Of a stretch of 64,000 bases of DNA, positions 2,427-64,000 are shown one piece after another. How positions within the stretch are numbered: the first letter of the stretch is position 1; the number at the start of each line of letters is the position of its first letter. Origin of the DNA: an uncultured Chitinophaga sp. (lineage in GTDB: Bacteria; Bacteroidota; Bacteroidia; Chitinophagales; LD1); assembly GCA_964493695.1 (NCBI GenBank), contig CAZBPG010000003.1, positions 124-64,123 on the forward strand. Direction: 5' to 3'. The notes beneath the pieces were generated by a model. The model was not told where the DNA came from and did not search any database. It saw only the letters and a program-made list of their open reading frames with translations. A program made the translations under genes and the position numbers.

Positions 2427-2999
2427 TTATGTGAAGAGTTTGTCTTCCACTAACTGGCAAATAATATGTCCGATAAGAATATGACTTTCCTGAATCCTCG
2501 GAGTGTCTTTGCTCGGCACATTAAAAAGATAATCGCAGGAGTCTTTCATTTTGCCTCCGCCTTCACCGGTAAACGAAATAACGTGCATACCGCGTTGTTT
2601 TGCTTCAATCTGCGCCAGCAAAACATTTTTCGAATTGCCTGAAGTGGAAATACCAATCAGCACATCGCCTTTTCTTCCGTACGCTTTTACAGCTCTTTCA
2701 TAAATCTGGTCGTAGCTATAATCGTTCGCCACAGCCGTCAGAAAAGAAGTATTCACATGTAATGCTTCAGCAGGAAGAGGTTCCCTGTCACTATAAAACC
2801 TTCCGGTAAACTCAGCAGCCAGATGCTGTGCATCGGCTGCGCTGCCACCGTTACCGCACAAATACAGGCGGTGCCCGTTTTCGAAAGCGTCTGCAATCAG
2901 TTTCGAAACTTCTTCAATCCGTTTTACAAAAAACTCATCCGCCAGAATTTTACTCTTGACTTCAATAGAGGAAGAAATAATGGATTTGATTTTACTCAT
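2427..2999 (-). CDS. gmhA: Phosphoheptose (sedoheptulose-7-phosphate) isomerase
   Basis: CGNGGSAADAQHLAAE, ISTSGNS and TPRIQESH motifs. Confidence 0.95.
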   Translation of the reverse strand: MSKIKSIISSSIEVKSKILADEFFVKRIEEVSKLIADAFENGHRLYLCGNGGSAADAQHLAAEFTGRFYSDREPLPAEALHVNTSFLTAVANDYSYDQIYERAVKAYGRKGDVLIGISTSGNSKNVLLAQIEAKQRGMHVISFTGEGGGKMKDSCDYLFNVPSKDTPRIQESHILIGHIICQLVEDKLFT

Positions 3000-3026
3000 A
3001 GCGCAAACATAAAGAAAAGGCAGACC

Positions 3027-8988: not shown

Positions 8989-9816
8989 ATGAAGATTCGG
9001 TTCCTTTCTTTTTGTCTACTGCCTATTGCCTACTGCCTGCTGGTAATCGGTTGCAACATGCCCAACGATGGCATTCCGGTACTTATGAAAATAGATTCGG
9101 TTACCGTATCTGCCCTGTCCGGTCAGGGAGCGGGCTCGCATAACATTACCGATGTATGGGTAGAAGCCAATGACGACAACGTAGGCGCTTACGCCCTGCC
9201 CTGCAATATTCCGGTGCTGCGGGAAAACGAAATACGCTTTGTGGTAAGTGCGGGAATTAAAGAAAGCGGGCAATCGGGTATCCGGGTTATTTATCCTTTT
9301 TACGCTGCCGATACTTTTACTATTACCGGTGTGCGGGGCCAGCAGTATTCGCGCAACCCTGTTTTTAAATATGTAAACAGTGCGCAGTTTTCGTTTGCCG
9401 AAGATTTCGATTTCAGCAATCCGTTCAGCGGCTCTACCATAGTGAACGATTCGGGCTATGCCGGCACGCGCTGCATTAAATTCAGTGTAAATACTACCGA
9501 TAGCAGCAAAGAGGTTTCGCACGTTACCAAATACGATTTACCCGAAGGGCAGGAAATTTGGCTGGAGGTGGACTACAAAAGCGAAGTGCCTTTTTTTGTT
9601 GGCTTTTACGCCACTTATAATGGCAGCAGTGGGGGGCGCGTGCCGGTGATGTTTGTTACCGCGCAGCCCGAGTGGAACAAGGTGTATGTAAAGTTCAGCA
9701 ATTATGTGGGTAGTGTGAGGGCAGATAGCTATAATGTATACTTCGAGGCACTACGGCCTTATGGCTCGGCTGGCGGAAGTGTATATATAGATAACGTGAA
9801 ACTGGTTCATTTTTGA
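8989..9816 (+). CDS. Uncharacterised lipoprotein
   Basis: Signal peptide ending VIGC (lipobox); beta-rich 275-aa ORF with a C-terminal YIDNVKL typical of CBM-like folds. Confidence 0.75.
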   Translation: MKIRFLSFCLLPIAYCLLVIGCNMPNDGIPVLMKIDSVTVSALSGQGAGSHNITDVWVEANDDNVGAYALPCNIPVLRENEIRFVVSAGIKESGQSGIRVIYPFYAADTFTITGVRGQQYSRNPVFKYVNSAQFSFAEDFDFSNPFSGSTIVNDSGYAGTRCIKFSVNTTDSSKEVSHVTKYDLPEGQEIWLEVDYKSEVPFFVGFYATYNGSSGGRVPVMFVTAQPEWNKVYVKFSNYVGSVRADSYNVYFEALRPYGSAGGSVYIDNVKLVHF

Positions 9817-9874: not shown

Positions 9875-10092
9875 AATGATTTACGGACTACAGGAAATGA
9901 TTCCCTGACAACAGTAAATGATTTACGGACTACCGGAAATGATTCCCTGACAGCAGTAAATGATTTACGGACTACCAAAAATGATTCCCTGACAGCAGTA
10001 AATGATTTACGGACCACCGGAAATGATTCCCTGACAGCAAAAAATGATTCCCTGACAGCAGAAAATGAATTACGGACTACCGGAAATGATTT
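9875..10092. repeat. Tandem array of alternating 21-bp units AATGATTTACGGACTACCGGA / AATGATTCCCTGACAGCAGTA
   Basis: 10 full units starting every 21 bp from 9875 to 10064 (order ABABABABBA) plus a partial unit. Confidence 0.95.
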
Positions 10093-10146
10093 TCTAATAC
10101 AAATATGCTTTCCACAAATGTCAAAAATCATTTACAAAAAGGCAGC

Positions 10147-11565
10147 ATGAACAAACGAAAATCCATCCTTGTCTGGTATGTGTTCAGCGATTATGTGGCT
10201 GCCGTGCTGGCCTGGTATTTTCTTTTCCTTTTCCGCAAAATAGTTATCGAAGGCAACCCCTTTGCTTACAACCTGCCCTTTAGCGACAGTAATTTTTGGG
10301 TAGCCATGATGATAGTGCCCGAGCTTTGGCTGCTGTTCCACTACCTTACCGGAACCTACACCGACCTCTACAAAAAATCGCGCCTGCAGGAACTGGGCAA
10401 AACCTTTATTGTAACTTTTGTAGGCAGCATTATTGTTTTCTTTCTGCTGCTGCTTGACGATTTTGTGCGCAGATATTCCGACTACTACCTCACGTTTGCG
10501 GTTTTATTCTCGCTGCAATTCTTTTTCACCTTCCTGGGCAGGTTCGTTATACTGAATGTGGTTAAAAGAAATATCTGGAGCGGCAAAGCGGGTTTCAGCA
10601 CCCTGCTTATTGGCAGCAGCCAGAAAGCAAACGAGCTGTACGAAGAAATGAAGGCCAAGGAGCGCTCCTTTGGTTTTCAGTTCACCGGTTACCTCGAACT
10701 GAACGGCAGCACTAAAAACACCCTCACTACCGAGCTGAAAGAACTTGGCAAACTCCGCGATTTGGAAAAAGTGATTGACCGGTACAGCGAGATAGAAGAA
10801 GTCATCATTGCTATCGAATCGTCCGAGCACCATCAGCTCAACGATATCCTGAACCGGCTGGCCGATAAAAATGTAACCATCCGCATCATTCCCGACATGT
10901 ACGATATCCTCTCCGGTACCGTGCGCATGAACCACGCCATCGGTGAAGCGTTTATCGAAATTCCTCCGCGCCTACTCAACGAATGGGAACGCATCACCAA
11001 ACGCTGGTTCGATGTGTGGGCTTCGCTCTTTGCGCTCTTTATCACGCTGCCGGTTACTCTGTACGTAGCGCTGCGCATAAAAATGATTGATGGCGGTCCT
11101 GTTTTTTACATGCAGGAACGCTTAGGCCAATACGGAATCCCTTTCCGCATTTATAAGTTCCGTTCCATGAAGATAAATGCCGAATCAAACGGCCCGCAAC
11201 TGACCAGCGAAAACGATGACCGCATTACCGGTATCGGTAAAACCATCCGCAAGTACCGGATAGATGAACTGCCGCAATTCATCAATGTATTAAAAGGCGA
11301 AATGAGCATTGTTGGTCCGCGTGCAGAGCGCAGATACTTTGCCGACCGCATTACCGAACTTGCGCCCCACTACCGGCACGTGTTTAAAGTGCAGCCCGGC
11401 ATCACTTCCCTCGGCATGGTTAAATACGGCTACGCTTCCACCGTTGACGAAATGGTAAAGCGCCTGAAATACGACATCATCTACATCGAAAACATGAGCA
11501 TCACACTCGACTTTAAGATAATGGTTTACACCGTGCTTACCGTTATTTACGGCAGAGGGAAATAG
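10147..11565 (+). CDS. Polyprenyl glycosylphosphotransferase (WcaJ/WbaP-like sugar transferase)
   Basis: N-terminal TM helices, a Rossmann-like middle region, and YKFRSM, RKYRIDELPQFINVLKGEMSIVGPR, PGIT motifs. Start at MNKRK. Confidence 0.92.
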   Translation: MNKRKSILVWYVFSDYVAAVLAWYFLFLFRKIVIEGNPFAYNLPFSDSNFWVAMMIVPELWLLFHYLTGTYTDLYKKSRLQELGKTFIVTFVGSIIVFFLLLLDDFVRRYSDYYLTFAVLFSLQFFFTFLGRFVILNVVKRNIWSGKAGFSTLLIGSSQKANELYEEMKAKERSFGFQFTGYLELNGSTKNTLTTELKELGKLRDLEKVIDRYSEIEEVIIAIESSEHHQLNDILNRLADKNVTIRIIPDMYDILSGTVRMNHAIGEAFIEIPPRLLNEWERITKRWFDVWASLFALFITLPVTLYVALRIKMIDGGPVFYMQERLGQYGIPFRIYKFRSMKINAESNGPQLTSENDDRITGIGKTIRKYRIDELPQFINVLKGEMSIVGPRAERRYFADRITELAPHYRHVFKVQPGITSLGMVKYGYASTVDEMVKRLKYDIIYIENMSITLDFKIMVYTVLTVIYGRGK

Positions 11566-21511: not shown

Positions 21512-22924
21512 ATGGCAAGTATGAAAAAATGTTTCCTCTTTTCAGTTCTCAGTTTATCCGCCTTCTTTATTTACGCCCAAAACAATGTAGGCATAGGAAC
21601 TCCCACACCCGATGCTTCTTCTATTCTTGAACTGAATTCAAACACCAAAGGTTTCCTTGCCCCACGCATGACTACTGCCGAGCGTCTGGCTATTGGCGCT
21701 CCGGCTACCGGTTTGCTGGTTTATGATACTTCCCTTGGCTGCTACTTCTATTATAATGGTGCATGGACATCGCTCTGTCAGTCATCTCCGGTTTGTAACA
21801 CCGCTGCTGCCGGAAACATTGCCATGTTCGCCTCTCCCGCTACTGTTTGCAACTCCGTTTTATTTCAAAGCGGAAACAATATTGGGTTAAATACCACTAC
21901 ACCGGTTCTTTCCTTTCAGGTAAATGCTACCGATGCTATCGGCCTTCCAAGCGGTACAACAGCCCAGCAACCTGTCGGTGCTCCGGTTGGCTCTATCCGT
22001 TACAATACAACGTTGGGCGCTGCCGAAGTTTACACCGGTACCTGTTGGCAGAATGTAAATACCCCGCCCATCGGCTCTACTTATGTTCAATGGTTTAACG
22101 CAGCTGACCCTAATACTATTTACCCGTGTACCCAATGGATAGGCTCGGATATAGCCAACGGTGAGTTTATCCGCGCCCGTGGCGGGGCATCGAATGTGGC
22201 AGCCGGTGGTGCATTGACCGGTACCCTTCAAAGCCATGCTGTCGAAGACCATACACATACCATCGCAGGTATCATTAACGGTTCGGGTGCGCTCACCACC
22301 TCGAGCGATGGAGCGCACACCCATAACTGGGGAGGTAACTGGAGCAATGATGACTCCCGCGATTATACAGCCGCTGCCGGTAATGGCGATGGCAACGGAA
22401 ATACGCTGAGCGACAACTCCTTTTGGTGGGGAGGAAACCCCGGCACTACCGGTAATGCCAACCAGGAATTTGCCGTGCGCACTTCTACAACTAACGGTAA
22501 CCACAGCCACACCGGTGCCACTTCAGGAGCAGTAACCAATAACCCCAATACCTGGATACCTTATGATGATAACCTGTCCAGTGATGCCAGCAACCTTTCT
22601 ATGGGCGATAACCCCACTACCTGTGGTAGCGGTTGGGACGGAAGGCATACAGCAGGAAATTTTATGGGACGATTAAGTGACGGCTGCATGGGGCATGTGC
22701 ATAACATTACTGCCGATGGCAACCACTCACACACAGTTGATTTTTATGCCCACCGTCATTTTATAAAAATGCGCGCAACTACTCTAGATGGTGCACACAC
22801 TCATACCCTTGCAGACCATACGCATACCTTTAACCTGAACGTGGGGAGTATGAACAGCGGAACATCAGGCACCGAAACCCGCCCCGATAATGTGGCAGTG
22901 GTATTTTGGAGAAGGGTGAATTGA
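21512..22924 (+). CDS. Secreted protein with phage tail-fibre/baseplate-like domains and eight HxH motifs
   Basis: Signal peptide, then an NVGIGTPTP...GFLAPRMTT module, PIGSTY...DPN...FIRA, eight HxH motifs and a terminal ETRPDNVAVVFWRRV. Confidence 0.75.
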   Translation: MASMKKCFLFSVLSLSAFFIYAQNNVGIGTPTPDASSILELNSNTKGFLAPRMTTAERLAIGAPATGLLVYDTSLGCYFYYNGAWTSLCQSSPVCNTAAAGNIAMFASPATVCNSVLFQSGNNIGLNTTTPVLSFQVNATDAIGLPSGTTAQQPVGAPVGSIRYNTTLGAAEVYTGTCWQNVNTPPIGSTYVQWFNAADPNTIYPCTQWIGSDIANGEFIRARGGASNVAAGGALTGTLQSHAVEDHTHTIAGIINGSGALTTSSDGAHTHNWGGNWSNDDSRDYTAAAGNGDGNGNTLSDNSFWWGGNPGTTGNANQEFAVRTSTTNGNHSHTGATSGAVTNNPNTWIPYDDNLSSDASNLSMGDNPTTCGSGWDGRHTAGNFMGRLSDGCMGHVHNITADGNHSHTVDFYAHRHFIKMRATTLDGAHTHTLADHTHTFNLNVGSMNSGTSGTETRPDNVAVVFWRRVN

Positions 22925-22937
22925 AAAAGCTCGGTAC

Positions 22938-23217
22938 TTTCGACATTCGTCTATTACCTCTGTAACTTCTACAGAGCCTTTGCACATTCGTCTAATACCT
23001 CTGTAACTTCTACAGACCCTTTCGACATTCGTCTATTGCCTCTGTAACTCCTACAGACCCTTTCGACATTCGTCCATTGCCTCTGTAACTTCTACAGACC
23101 CTTTCGACATTCGTCTATTGCCTCTGTAACTTCTACAGACCCTTTCGACATTCGTCCAATGCCTCTGTAACTCCTACAGACCCTTTGCACATTCGTCTAA
23201 TGCCTCTGTAACTCCTA
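22938..23217. repeat. 41-bp tandem array, about 6.8 units
   Basis: Consensus TTTCGACATTCGTCTATT-GCC-TCTGTAACTTCTACAGA-CCC; unit starts every 41 bp from 22938 to 23184. Confidence 0.95.
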
Positions 23218-23232
23218 GAGAATGTTAAAAAC

Positions 23233-23263
23233 AAAAAAGCCCTCCGAAAATCGGAGGGCTTTT
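23233..23263 (-). terminator. Intrinsic terminator of tuf, likely bidirectional
   Basis: AAAAGCCCTCCGA-AAA-TCGGAGGGCTTTT. Confidence 0.85.
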
Positions 23264-23296: not shown

Positions 23297-24493
23297 TTAT
23301 TTCACGATTTCAGTAACCTGACCGGCACCTACTGTTCTTCCACCTTCGCGGATAGCGAAGCGAAGACCTTTCTCCATCGCAATAGGATAGATAAGTTTTA
23401 CAGAAAGTGTTACGTTATCGCCAGGCATAACCATTTCTACACCTGCCGGCAAAGTAATTTCACCTGTTACATCAGTCGTACGGAAATAGAACTGAGGACG
23501 GTATTGGTTGAAGAATGGAGTGTGACGTCCGCCTTCTTCTTTACTCAATACGTAAGTTTCGCATTTAAACTCAGTGTGCGGAGTTACAGAACCCGGTTTT
23601 ACAACCACCATGCCTCTCTTAATCTGCTCTTTTTCAATACCACGGAGAAGAAGACCTACGTTATCGCCAGCCTCGCCTCTGTCAAGAATTTTACGGAACA
23701 TTTCCACACCGGTAACAGTTGAAGTCAAAGGTTTTTCACCTTCTTTCTGCAATCCGATTAATTCTACCGGGTCGTTAGAGTTAATAACACCCCTTTCGAT
23801 ACGTCCTGTAGCAACCGTTCCACGACCTGTAATAGAGAAAACATCTTCACATGGCATAAGGAAAGGAAGTTCAGTTGCACGCGGAGGAACGGGAATCCAG
23901 CTATCCACAGCAGCCATTAACTCATCAATTTTTTCCACCCATTTTGCTTCACCGTTCAATGCACCGAGAGCAGAACCCTGAATAATTGGAATGTTAGCAC
24001 CATCGAATTTATAGAAAGTCAACAGGTCGCGTATTTCCATTTCACCTAACTCCAGGAACTCAGGATCTTCAACCAAATCAACTTTATTCATAAATACCAC
24101 GATTTGAGGAACACCTACCTGACGGGCAAGAAGGATGTGTTCGCGTGTTTGCGGCATAGGACCATCAGTAGCAGCAACAACAAGGATAGCACCATCCATT
24201 TGGGCAGCACCTGTAACCATGTTCTTGATGTAATCCGCGTGACCCGGGCAGTCAACGTGTGCATAGTGACGGTTAGCAGTCGCATACTCAACGTGAGCTG
24301 TGTTAATGGTAATACCTCTTTCTTTTTCTTCAGGGGCATTATCAATTGAAGAATAGTCGCGCACCTCAGCGAGACCTTTCTTTGAAAGCACCGTTGTGAT
24401 AGCGGCAGTCAAAGTTGTTTTGCCGTGATCCACGTGTCCGATGGTTCCGATGTTCACATGCGGCTTGTCCTTAATGAATTTTTCTTTAGCCAT
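23297..24493 (-). CDS. tuf: Elongation factor Tu
   Basis: [21 protein letters not shown] and [10 protein letters not shown] motifs. Confidence 0.99.
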
Positions 24494-45454: not shown

Positions 45455-45740
45455 TGTTACCGATTAGTTACACTGCCTGTATCTTTCATAATGCCTGTAA
45501 CTTTTCGGTAACATGTTCTGTAACTATTACAGATTCTGTAACTATTCGGTGACATCTTCTATAATAAATACAGACCTTGTAACTATTCGGTGTCATAGGC
45601 TATAACTATTACAGGTTATGTAACTATTTAGTTACATACTCTATATTTTATACAGAAGCTGTAACTATTCGGTTACAACTTCTGTATTTTATAAAACAGA
45701 TGTCACCGAATAGTTACACCGTCTATTAACTTCTTATAAC
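45455..45740. repeat. Degenerate 41-bp-period array, homologous to 22938..23217
   Basis: 18-bp TGT(A/C/T)AC-N6-GT(T/G/A)ACA-like units start at 45455, 45496, 45537, 45578, 45619, 45660 and 45701, separated by 23-bp linkers containing TCTGTA-N5-TACAGA-like sequence. Confidence 0.9.
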
Positions 45741-45833: not shown

Positions 45834-46556
45834 ATGAGCAAGAAAAAAGTGCGCCTGCTGCTGAACAGCTTTGAAATACAAACCAGGCGCAGCCACAAAA
45901 AAGCAGTTTCGCTTAGTTTTGGAACTATCCGCAAACTAAGCCCGGTAACGGTGCCTGCTTTGCAGCAAATACATAACGATTACCTGCCCCATCATGAAGC
46001 GTACATCAACCTCGACACTGCGGTGGGGATGCTGGAAGGAACCTATAAGGGCAAAACAAATTCCTTTATACTTCTAATAAACAACCTGCCGGTTAAACTC
46101 CGGCAATGGGAAGCCCCTATACACACAGTTTTTATGGAAGATTCAGCGGAGGCCATAGACATATTTTCGCGCAAGCGCACTCCTTTTTATGTGGGCACGT
46201 ATGAGCAGCGGCTAATGGCTATTCGTGTGCTGCGCAATAAACTGGCAGAATATATTGCTGCTTACCCTGCACTGGCACCGGTGCAGACAGATGTAGCCAC
46301 TTATTGCACACTGGCAGAAACTGCGCGCAGTTTGCAGCAAGGCAAAGAAGGCAACCTGGGCGAATTGCGGACCCTTCGCGAAGCTCAGCGCGTTGCTACT
46401 ATGAATGCTTATTGGGGAATAGTGTACTGTGGTTTAATGAGGCAGTTTTATACCAACCCTGCAGAGGTAGCCGCCTTTATTGAGTTTGAACTGTTGTATG
46501 AAAAAGAAAAAGAGGAAGAGGAAGGTGATGAAGGGCTAACCGGTGCCATAGTTTAA
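45834..46556 (+). CDS. Hypothetical helical protein (240 aa) downstream of the 41-bp array
   Basis: Intact ORF with an acidic tail; no signal peptide or recognisable catalytic motif. Confidence 0.75.
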   Translation: MSKKKVRLLLNSFEIQTRRSHKKAVSLSFGTIRKLSPVTVPALQQIHNDYLPHHEAYINLDTAVGMLEGTYKGKTNSFILLINNLPVKLRQWEAPIHTVFMEDSAEAIDIFSRKRTPFYVGTYEQRLMAIRVLRNKLAEYIAAYPALAPVQTDVATYCTLAETARSLQQGKEGNLGELRTLREAQRVATMNAYWGIVYCGLMRQFYTNPAEVAAFIEFELLYEKEKEEEEGDEGLTGAIV

Positions 46557-62711: not shown

Positions 62712-64000
62712 TTAAGCCCCCTTTAGGGGGTTGGGGGTGTTCCCCTCCACTATTTTCACCTCCTCCTCCGTCAACCCATACAACACATACACCATCCTAT
62801 CTATCTCCTTATCCGTTTTCTCTATTTCATTCTTCAACTCCATTGCCTTCTTCTTTTGCTCTGCAAAAAACGGCATCCATTCCGCAGTCTCGCGTAGCGA
62901 CAAGGCAGCACGCTGCCTTGTTGCCTTTTCCAGCTCCTTCACAAACTCCTTAAACTCCAACTCATACCACCCTTGCAGTTTTTTAGGCAAGGGAGCATGC
63001 TCCCTTGTTGCACTAAAAGCCACCTTGCTTTGCAGCACCGCGAGGAATTGTGATTGGATTACTTGTAATTTCGGTGTGGCATTTACTATAGTATTAACCG
63101 CTTCAATAAATGCTGTTTGGACACCTGCATTTGCTATTTTAATAGGTAAGTTTCGAATTGCTTCCGGGTAAACATGGAGGTTACTGCTTAATATTAGTTT
63201 GAAATAAAAATTAAGAAGTCTTGAATTGATTAAGGCGAGTATATATTTCACAGAGGTTTCTTCCGAAAGCTTTACCTGTTCAAAAGTGCCCTCAACTCCT
63301 CTCTGTTTAACGTCTTTTAGTTTCCACCAAGGTATTACAACACTCATAGTGTCGTTCACGTAATATTCTTCATAATCATACGCTGCCATAAGCCCCTCAG
63401 TTGTTGAGATATTTCGCACCAACAGTTTTTCGTTTTCAAATAACTCTGGAAACTTAGGTCTGTGCATCTCATCAGGTTGATAGTCTAAATATTTATTGTC
63501 CCACTCAATCAAATATCTGTTAACATTTTTTCCTTCGATATATTTATGACAGCGTTCGTTCTCCTTTTCATTCTTAATAAGTCTATCCTTCGAAGCTCCG
63601 GTTTCAGAATTGTGAGGAACTGCTCCAATCACGACATAACAGAAATCATTTACTTTTTTTGATTGCTCAGTTATCTTCTTTATGAGTTTGACTAACGCTT
63701 CATTCAAATCTGTTCGAAAGGTTGTGTTTGGCAAATCCCGATAAATATCTTTGCTAATTAAGTATCGAGTAGTCGATAGAAATTGAACTTCGTTCAAGGG
63801 TTTGTATATAAGCACATTCTTACTTGGCAACGCTTTTCTAACTGTAATTATTCCTGTCTCAACTGCAACACCTTTGAAAACATCTATGTTTGATAAATCT
63901 ATCAATTCTAAAATGTCCAATTCATTCAAAAGCCACTCTCTTTGCTTTACAGAGTAGTTTTGATTATAAAAAGATGATGGGAAAATGTAAGAGAGGAATC
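62712..64000 (-). CDS. Type IIG/Eco57I-like adenine methyltransferase, C-terminal part with a TaqI-like specificity domain (5' end outside window)
   Basis: The frame is open to the window edge (FLSYIFPSSF...IDLSNIDVF). Motifs: KYIEGKNVNRY, KLLVRNIS, YILALINS and EIDRMVYVLYGLTEEE. Confidence 0.85.
   Translation of the reverse strand, partial: FLSYIFPSSFYNQNYSVKQREWLLNELDILELIDLSNIDVFKGVAVETGIITVRKALPSKNVLIYKPLNEVQFLSTTRYLISKDIYRDLPNTTFRTDLNEALVKLIKKITEQSKKVNDFCYVVIGAVPHNSETGASKDRLIKNEKENERCHKYIEGKNVNRYLIEWDNKYLDYQPDEMHRPKFPELFENEKLLVRNISTTEGLMAAYDYEEYYVNDTMSVVIPWWKLKDVKQRGVEGTFEQVKLSEETSVKYILALINSRLLNFYFKLILSSNLHVYPEAIRNLPIKIANAGVQTAFIEAVNTIVNATPKLQVIQSQFLAVLQSKVAFSATREHAPLPKKLQGWYELEFKEFVKELEKATRQRAALSLRETAEWMPFFAEQKKKAMELKNEIEKTDKEIDRMVYVLYGLTEEEVKIVEGNTPNPLKGA

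Follow-up and report, generated by a model that had tools for sequence, protein, structure and literature searches.

What is a row of near-identical, non-coding 41-bp units doing between the 3′ ends of two convergent genes? The question is raised by a tandem array at 22.9 kb in a 64,000-nt stretch of DNA (hereafter the window), which lies on a chromosomal stretch of contig C3 of a Bacteroidota genome (denoted G000; 4.24 Mb in 198 contigs, 43% GC). The 22.9-kb array is a young orphan of an array-plus-gene module, not a full module; the normal home of its array family is approximately 100 bp upstream of the start codon of genes of the p330 family. Below, arrays that adjoin such a companion gene are referred to as masters and gene-less copies as orphans. 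The array and the two halves of a representative unit are placed in the window as follows.

22937–23221, + strand: the orphan array, seven head-to-tail 41-bp units, the last one cut after 39 nt (from Tandem Repeats Finder, TRF, and the unit listing)
23101–23121, + strand: half A of a representative unit (CTTTCGACATTCGTCTATTGC), which holds the 9-nt core ACATTCGTC at 23107–23115
23122–23141, + strand: half B of that unit (CTCTGTAACTTCTACAGACC), with the palindrome TCTGTA-ACTTC-TACAGA at 23123–23139

A sequence-only reading of the window had described near-identical 41-bp units that begin 13 nt past the stop codon of a fibre gene, each laid out as an 18-mer, 3 nt, a 17-mer hairpin and 3 nt, and had taken them to be neither coding nor of CRISPR (clustered regularly interspaced short palindromic repeats) type; each of these points held. 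TRF returns a period of 41, 7.0 copies, 92% matches, 0% indels and a score of 458, with units starting at 22937, 22978, 23019, 23060, 23101, 23142 and 23183, although for a 198-contig, metagenome-type assembly the copy number of a tandem array is possibly inexact (a sibling array on contig C9 contains an N gap). In register, the unit reads CTTTCGACATTCGTCTATTGC followed by CTCTGTAACTTCTACAGACC, with few variable positions, and the 17-mer is TCTGTA-ACTTC-TACAGA, as had been claimed. The array cannot code, since 41 is 2 mod 3 and there are stops on both strands of the unit; its interior holds no open reading frame (ORF) of at least 50 aa, and a 51-aa minus-strand ORF (22830–22985) overlaps only the first unit. 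A CRISPR array is ruled out because the units abut directly, with zero spacers between them; in an Rfam scan of the region no family, CRISPR repeat RNAs included, reached its gathering score, and relaxing the threshold to E ≤ 1 gave only weak matches driven by the neighbouring terminator.

Kinship with arrays upstream of p330-family genes

The array closest to that at 22.9 kb, identical to it at 36 of 41 positions, is found on another contig of the same genome (C84:2666–2961), 123 bp upstream of the gene for p330; the second closest, C9:50936–51555, is identical to the 22.9-kb unit at 32–34 of 41. A third, older relative lies in the window itself, again ahead of a gene.

45494–45683 of the window, + strand: related older 41-bp array, 72% unit identity, 151 bp upstream of p240
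45834–46556 of the window, + strand: p240, companion gene of the 45.5-kb array, its product 62% identical to p330
G000:C84:1551–2543, − strand: p330 (330 aa), companion of the master array for this sequence type, located by tblastn

That the two arrays of the window are kin had been proposed from their layout. In exactly the register proposed, the two consensus units agree at 25 of 41 positions, a score that chance did not reproduce in 20,000 shuffles (mean 17.8, sd 1.36, maximum 24), and the kinship is independently backed by the companion genes p240 and p330. In a second genome (G022:C184) a p330 orthologue with 64% identity is preceded by units CTTTGGACATTCGTCTAATGC and CTCTGTAACTCTTACAGACC, which are almost identical to those at 22.9 kb, and the hairpin of this orthologous module, CTGTAACTCTTACAG, nearly equals that of the 22.9-kb array. 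The unit match, together with the gene evidence from p240, p330, C84 and G022, establishes that both arrays of the window, although diverged, belong to one family, which travels with one gene family. At the distal end of the C84 master there is also a relic half-unit, TTCTGTAACTTCTACAG, identical to the hairpin of the 22.9-kb orphan, so the orphan keeps an older unit type of its master. A perfect 48-bp palindrome (CGAGTAAAGACTTGCCAAGTTTT / CAAAACTTGGCAAGTCTTTACTCG) is located between this relic and the first full master unit (G000:C84, approximately 2962–3015). A second p330 copy is seen at G000:C83:1–460, where an insertion sequence (IS) element ends, in the C-terminal part of a DDE transposase, directly against the final 54 codons of a gene 98% identical to that on C84; this is a paralogue disrupted by the IS or else a variant of the master gene within the population.

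The pairing of array and gene is consistent. All five p240/p330 paralogues that tblastn detects in G000 have a 41- or 42-bp array 55–316 bp upstream on the same strand, and the same holds for the six orthologues examined elsewhere (G008:C108, G022:C184, G022:C26, L055, L056 and L057), each of which has a 41/42-bp array upstream. The 41-bp arrays of the orthologues end 40–160 bp before the start codon; three of them come from public assemblies, with proteins at 55%, 57% and 51% identity. In the most distant orthologue the spelling of the unit differs whilst the design is alike, with two palindromes per unit (TTCCAA-CATC-TTGGAA and TCCACTG-TTT-CAGTGGA). The spacer between array and ATG (approximately 98 bp) is 84% conserved among four loci whose proteins are 57–64% identical to p330, and the sequence on the upstream side of the arrays, compared by eye, has no obvious conservation. 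From this conserved spacer and unconserved upstream side it appears that a promoter probably lies between array and companion gene, which would place the arrays upstream of the promoter rather than in transcript leaders.

The p330 protein itself offers few clues. An AlphaFold2 model built on a 16-sequence alignment (predicted local distance difference test score, pLDDT, of 84) has a predicted helical domain (residues 1–222) and a predicted β-sandwich (226–329). A Foldseek search of the model against the PDB gave weak jelly-roll/cupin-like matches for the C-terminal part and no significant match, whilst the helical domain alone, modelled as p240, gave nothing with E below 0.4. Domain searches of p330 with PADLOC, NCBIfam and Pfam returned nothing convincing, and PHROGs returned one marginal match (E = 0.005). 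A recognisable DNA-binding role for p330 was considered and set aside, as the two AlphaFold2 models with Foldseek against the PDB, Pfam, NCBIfam, PADLOC and PHROGs all gave it no support.

A scan for the core motif at 41-bp spacing found it in only three of the 67 genomes of the taxonomic family (G000, G008 and G022). In G000 this sequence type comprises one master, on C84, and gene-less copies that include the 22.9-kb array, which demonstrates the master-plus-orphan relation for the locus.

Setting and recency of the 22.9-kb copy

Both flanks of the 22.9-kb array are 3′ ends, those of ORF470 and of tuf, and a terminator stands on the tuf side.

21512–22924, + strand: ORF470, the fibre gene, with a signal peptide and weak matches to phage tail-repeat/tail-fibre-like families
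23235–23263, both strands: bidirectional intrinsic terminator with a 13-bp stem between an A-run and a T-run, common to ORF470 and tuf
23297–24493, − strand: tuf (EF-Tu), convergent with ORF470 and preceded by genes for tRNA-Thr, Gly, Tyr and Thr

The TGA stop codon of ORF470 (22922–22924) lies about 12–13 nt ahead of the array, and the terminator hairpin, which scores as a terminator on both strands, begins 14 nt beyond the last unit. With 3′ ends on either side and no p330-family gene nearby by tblastn, the array lacks a companion gene, as the sequence-only reading had held. ORF470 is a neighbour of the array and not its partner: it was rejected as such because 11 orthologous loci of the same genus have neither an array of this kind nor synteny with tuf. 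One of the ORF470 orthologues carries a different repeat device at the equivalent position, directly 3′ of its stop codon, namely two inverted arms of tandem octamers, (GTGTTCAG)x5 and (ACCTGAAC)x4 (L015, G023:C47, 2914–3033).

The array had also been called young, and the comparisons agree. Downstream of tuf, G022 has a convergent gene with a type IX secretion system (T9SS) tail and a terminator but no array; G007 has a terminator without an array and keeps the classical tuf–tRNA–secE order; and G001 has a terminator with no array up to the contig end approximately 70 nt later. These array-free tuf sites, together with the array-free ORF470 orthologues, demonstrate that the insertion is recent and lineage-specific, with which the unit identity of 92% at 22.9 kb versus 72% at 45.5 kb, and the restriction of the type to three genomes, are in agreement. 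Metagenome scans with the array junction and with the unit pattern found no other assembly of the 22.9-kb locus, and an exact look-up of ORF470 gave no match.

The sibling orphan at C9:50936–51555 has at least 12 units, with an assembly gap inside; it starts right after the stop codon of a leucine-rich repeat (LRR)/T9SS gene (ORF436) and is followed by a terminator and then by convergent rplL. Both well-resolved orphans of this type are located at the 3′ end of a translation-apparatus operon (tuf and rplL). An A-rich motif that precedes the terminator at both the C3 and C9 orphans was considered as a common flank and rejected, as its 14 occurrences in the genome mark it as merely a local terminator style. 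Two more distant arrays, which also count among the gene-less copies of G000, are at C9:39588, 85 bp upstream of a radC-like gene, and at C4:85, on a contig edge. In G008 and G022, too, masters are accompanied by orphans, but at other sites: one upstream of an LRR/T9SS gene, the other in the gap that separates queG from a gene for a SWIB-domain protein. The genes that flank the orphan at G022:C79 are on different contigs in G000, which defeated an empty-site comparison.

Constraint within the unit and the wider class of arrays

Alignment of 41 distinct units from 11 arrays in three genomes reveals two elements of different character. The 9-nt core ACATTCGTC in half A is invariant or nearly so across the aligned units. 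Half B is kept as a stem rather than as a sequence: its positions are paired in 84.9% of cells, compared with 36–47% when the partner is slid, and at three positions there are compensatory pairs (GC/AU/CG). With a period of 41 bp, and approximately 20.5 bp between the two palindrome centres of a unit, the array is in phase with the DNA helix.

The stem might operate in RNA or in DNA. If the stem worked in an RNA copied from one strand, just one of the two mismatch kinds, G.T or A.C, should be tolerated; these occur in 20 and 24 cells respectively, with no strand bias, and both strands fold alike when compared with shuffles (z = −7.2 on one, −7.5 on the opposite strand). The absence of G.U strand bias, the similar folding of the two strands, the lack of an Rfam family and the position of the masters upstream of a putative promoter together favour a DNA-level palindrome, and point to one that acts in DNA rather than in RNA.

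To count variation in the core, each array was tiled strictly every 41 bp and differences from its own consensus were recorded. The core ACATTCGTC holds 13 of 139 differences in the orphans, versus 30.5 expected if they were even (P = 7.5e-5), and seven of 112 in the masters, versus 24.6 expected (P = 5.7e-6); since the units of an array share ancestry, these P values, like those for covariation, are optimistic. The core resists variation in orphans in the same pattern as in masters, and the orphans look either constrained or too young to have lost constraint. Outside arrays, single core 9-mers number 18, about the chance level, and there are no solo units; on contig C84 the core is found only within the array.

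The family belongs to a larger class. TRF on the whole genome shows a sharp excess at periods of 21 (75 arrays), 42 (69) and 41 (12), and about 145 arrays of these periods are spread across the genome. Most 'ORFs' over arrays are products of the repeats themselves, whilst clustering of the flanking ORFs gave seven families with 39 genes of 134–441 aa (mostly 220–330 aa), of which 38 face the array with their 5′ end from 55–460 bp away. No informative domain match was obtained for the seven families, apart from CarboxypepD_reg at the C-terminus of one, and profile comparison among them gave weak links only (2–7, 4–7 and 5–6, at 28–51% probability). The 41/42-bp units cluster into five types, each with exactly one companion-linked copy and one to six orphans. 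The ten orphans with both flanks resolved occupy five convergent, five tandem and no divergent gaps, compared with 14.8% convergent among all gaps on a crude ORF map (P about 0.01).

A blastn comparison (word size 7) of the 300-bp flanks of five family arrays found nothing in common beyond chance, and the arrays have no common flanks, terminal inverted repeats or obvious target duplications. Arrays of 41/42 bp are located at many contig ends (for example C4:85, C5:2, C80:1, C101:1, C130:1, C158:1, C10:61926, C32:34117 and C157:5404), so the repeat class is a main cause of assembly breaks and the 'orphan' status of arrays at an edge is uncertain. The window contains another 21/42-bp tandem array (AATGATTTACGGACTACCGGA / AATGATTCCCTGACAGCAGTA) at 9875–10092, which has no adjacent companion-type gene and lies between a lipoprotein gene (8989–9816, + strand) and a sugar-transferase gene (10105–11565, + strand).

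Seven matches to the Y1 transposase family (PF01797) are present in the genome, and four of the seven are within 2.6 kb of a 21/41/42-bp array, versus 15% for random positions. Five of the genes are of IS200/RAYT-like type, RAYT denoting a transposase associated with repetitive extragenic palindromic (REP) sequences.

C11:42351–42926, C32:21869–22432, C84:9148–9582, C61:23479–23895 and C180:2138–2590 (all G000): Y1-transposase (IS200/RAYT-like) genes

Those on C11, C32, C84 and C61 are flanked by short hairpins of their own (for example GTTGTTTGGTGTTATCACCAACAAC, CCCACGGATTTATCCGTGGG and AAACCGTTTAAACGGTTT). On C61 a further array fragment lies approximately 600 bp from the Y1 gene, at the contig end. 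At the end of the window (62712–64000, continuing to G000:C3:66560) a 1241-aa minus-strand ORF, by appearance a candidate Eco57I-type restriction-modification enzyme, has an internal match to PF01797 (35.6 bits) just past the window end.

Explanations, precedents and significance

We tentatively favour the interpretation that the 22.9-kb array is a displaced, still competent, phased protein-docking array operating at the DNA level, which at this 3′ site would be at most a secondary platform. Each 41-bp unit would offer two sites approximately 20.5 bp apart, that is, two helical turns, so that all sites would face one side of the helix. The first site would be the sequence-conserved core (GACATTCGTC, itself a small palindrome), and the second the palindrome with 6–8-bp arms, in which the sequence drifts whilst the symmetry is kept. 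A sequence-specific, probably dimeric DNA-binding factor may dock cooperatively along the row, and at master loci this docking would control the adjacent promoter. The 22.9-kb copy was placed recently into the convergent gap between the ORF470 stop codon and the tuf terminator, where insertions are tolerated. With no promoter to control, it would most likely persist as an accessory docking platform or decoy for that factor, a passive passenger of the 3′ untranslated region (UTR) of ORF470. Protein binding, the identity of the binder, cooperative docking on one face and effects on neighbouring genes are what we infer.

Several observations weigh against this interpretation. The predicted model of p330 has no recognisable DNA-binding fold or convincing family match; a docking array between two 3′ ends is without an obvious job; and template-switch mutation can keep palindromes perfect without selection. 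The shared ancestry of units, which flatters the statistics above, counts on the same side, as does a further genome, G002, which has a master of its own sequence type but no orphan, so that orphans are dispensable.

The array might instead be a neutral or selfish minisatellite, formed in a lineage that duplicates DNA in 7/21/42-bp steps, copied here by ectopic recombination and homogenised by slippage and gene conversion, with no binder and no function. The scattering of about 145 arrays over the genome is as expected on this account, as are the fast turnover of sequence types (this one in 3/67 family genomes), the different orphan positions among genomes, the preference of orphans for sites where insertions harm least (5/10 in convergent gaps, none in divergent ones) and the want of an orphan in G002. 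We nonetheless judge it unlikely: neutral decay should be even, whereas orphan variation avoids the 9-nt core (13 differences versus 30.5 expected); compensatory changes preserve the palindromes; orthologous modules whose proteins are only 55–64% identical still have the core; and a 5′ end facing the array in 38 of 39 genes of seven families is not expected of junk. Mobility is a further alternative, in which the product of the master gene, or another enzyme acting on DNA hairpins, would recognise hairpin and core and copy the arrays non-autonomously, as RAYT does with REP sequences. One gene-linked master with several gene-less copies per type, repeated over five types and three genomes, would fit such a process; a covarying stem beside a conserved 9–10-nt core without strand bias is reminiscent of what enzymes working on single-stranded DNA use as substrates, orphans, like REP elements, prefer 3′/convergent sites, and the Y1-transposase-like matches lie near arrays more often than random positions do (4/7 within 2.6 kb versus 15%). 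It appears improbable all the same, as p330 lacks motifs of nuclease, transposase or HUH type and is without a structural match, the genome's Y1/RAYT-like genes are flanked by different short hairpins (their own REPs), neither flanking sequences nor terminal inverted repeats nor obvious target duplications are common to the arrays, and there are no solo units, the 18 single cores outside arrays being close to chance.

It is very unlikely, in our assessment, that the array works at the RNA level, as a row of stem-loops in the ORF470 3′ UTR that would stabilise the mRNA (as REP sequences and bacterial interspersed mosaic elements, BIMEs, do in E. coli), act as a sponge for an RNA-binding protein or yield unit-length small RNAs. 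The array does lie between the stop codon and the sole terminator on the ORF470 strand, as the C9 sibling does after ORF436, and its folding is well beyond that of shuffles (z = −7.2). However, the opposite strand is just as foldable (z = −7.5), the stem mismatches favour G.U on neither strand (20 versus 24), the weak Rfam matches trace to the terminator, and the masters appear to be upstream of a conserved promoter-like spacer rather than within a transcript. In a convergent gap, moreover, an array in either orientation is co-oriented with one neighbour, so its placement is uninformative, which counts against an RNA element.

One parallel is with plasmid centromeres and iterons. In the F plasmid, sopC is a row of 12 units of 43 bp that contain a short inverted repeat apiece and are bound by SopB. 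Likewise, the arrays described here are spacer-less head-to-tail rows of units of approximately 41–43 bp with a short inverted repeat in each, the masters adjoin one particular gene, and extra copies could titrate a binder. Unlike such loci, they are chromosomal and number dozens, ParA/ParB and Rep proteins are absent, no DNA-binding fold is recognisable in the adjacent protein, each unit has two different sites, and gene-less copies lie at the 3′ ends of unrelated genes. A plasmid or phage origin found no support from blastn against 72,556 plasmid and 50,697 phage records, which gave no match, and the flanks are chromosomal housekeeping genes.

REP/BIME sequences with RAYT, in Enterobacteria and Pseudomonas, share with the arrays a palindromic extragenic character, a preference for 3′/convergent sites with avoidance of divergent promoter gaps, and one gene-linked copy per sequence family with dispersed gene-less copies. 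REPs occur singly or as inverted pairs (REPINs), whereas the arrays here are strict 41-bp head-to-tail rows only; the linked gene, p330, has no Y1 domain, whilst the genome's RAYT-like genes carry other flanking hairpins. A REP/RAYT identity was therefore rejected: Y1 genes are present but flanked by other hairpins, units do not occur singly and the companion is no Y1 protein. The mycobacterial interspersed repetitive units (MIRU) of Mycobacterium tuberculosis are minisatellites that keep reading frames and sit within operons. They resemble the arrays in that units of tens of bp recur in tandem at numerous intergenic loci, often right after a stop codon and with a copy number that is likely variable; they differ in that a 41-bp unit is not a multiple of 3, contains stops and two palindromes, and has a master gene. 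Within the Bacteroidota, BrickBuilt of Porphyromonas gingivalis is a minisatellite-MITE (MITE, a miniature transposable element with inverted repeats) with a 23-nt unit, conserved leader and tail subunits with inverted-repeat ends, and 19 copies in ATCC 33277 (PMC4596501); like the present arrays it repeats in tandem without spacers, lies in intergenic DNA in every case, is present many times per genome and has a limited host range (PMC4596501). The arrays differ from it in their 41-bp units, their association with a companion gene and the absence of common flanks or inverted ends; no leader, tail or terminal inverted repeats of a BrickBuilt-type MITE were found in the flanks of the five arrays compared.

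A full-text literature search found no description of arrays of this kind. Their design, a fixed 41/42-bp ruler whose units have two palindromic sites each and are strictly linked to unknown gene families, is likewise one for which we found no description. It is possible, if somewhat doubtful, that the 21/41/42-bp arrays are an undescribed genetic system, made up of master modules and gene-less satellite arrays under the same constraint, in which the 22.9-kb orphan is a working node and not debris. A master module would then consist of a phased two-site array with a gene for a protein predicted to combine helical and β-sandwich parts. Two forms of such a system are compatible with the data: a self-propagating DNA element of a new kind, or a distributed protein-docking network through which loci far apart, the tuf and rplL operons with their 3′ ends among them, would be connected to a single factor.

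Each of the dispersed repeats of which REP, MIRU and BrickBuilt are examples opened a chapter of bacterial genome biology. The 22.9-kb orphan separates the array from gene and promoter and keeps the core with nothing to regulate, and as such serves as a natural control: any factor that binds the master should bind the orphan too, and if the array acts only on a promoter, the orphan should be inert. The arrays may, in addition, drive rearrangements beside core translation operons.
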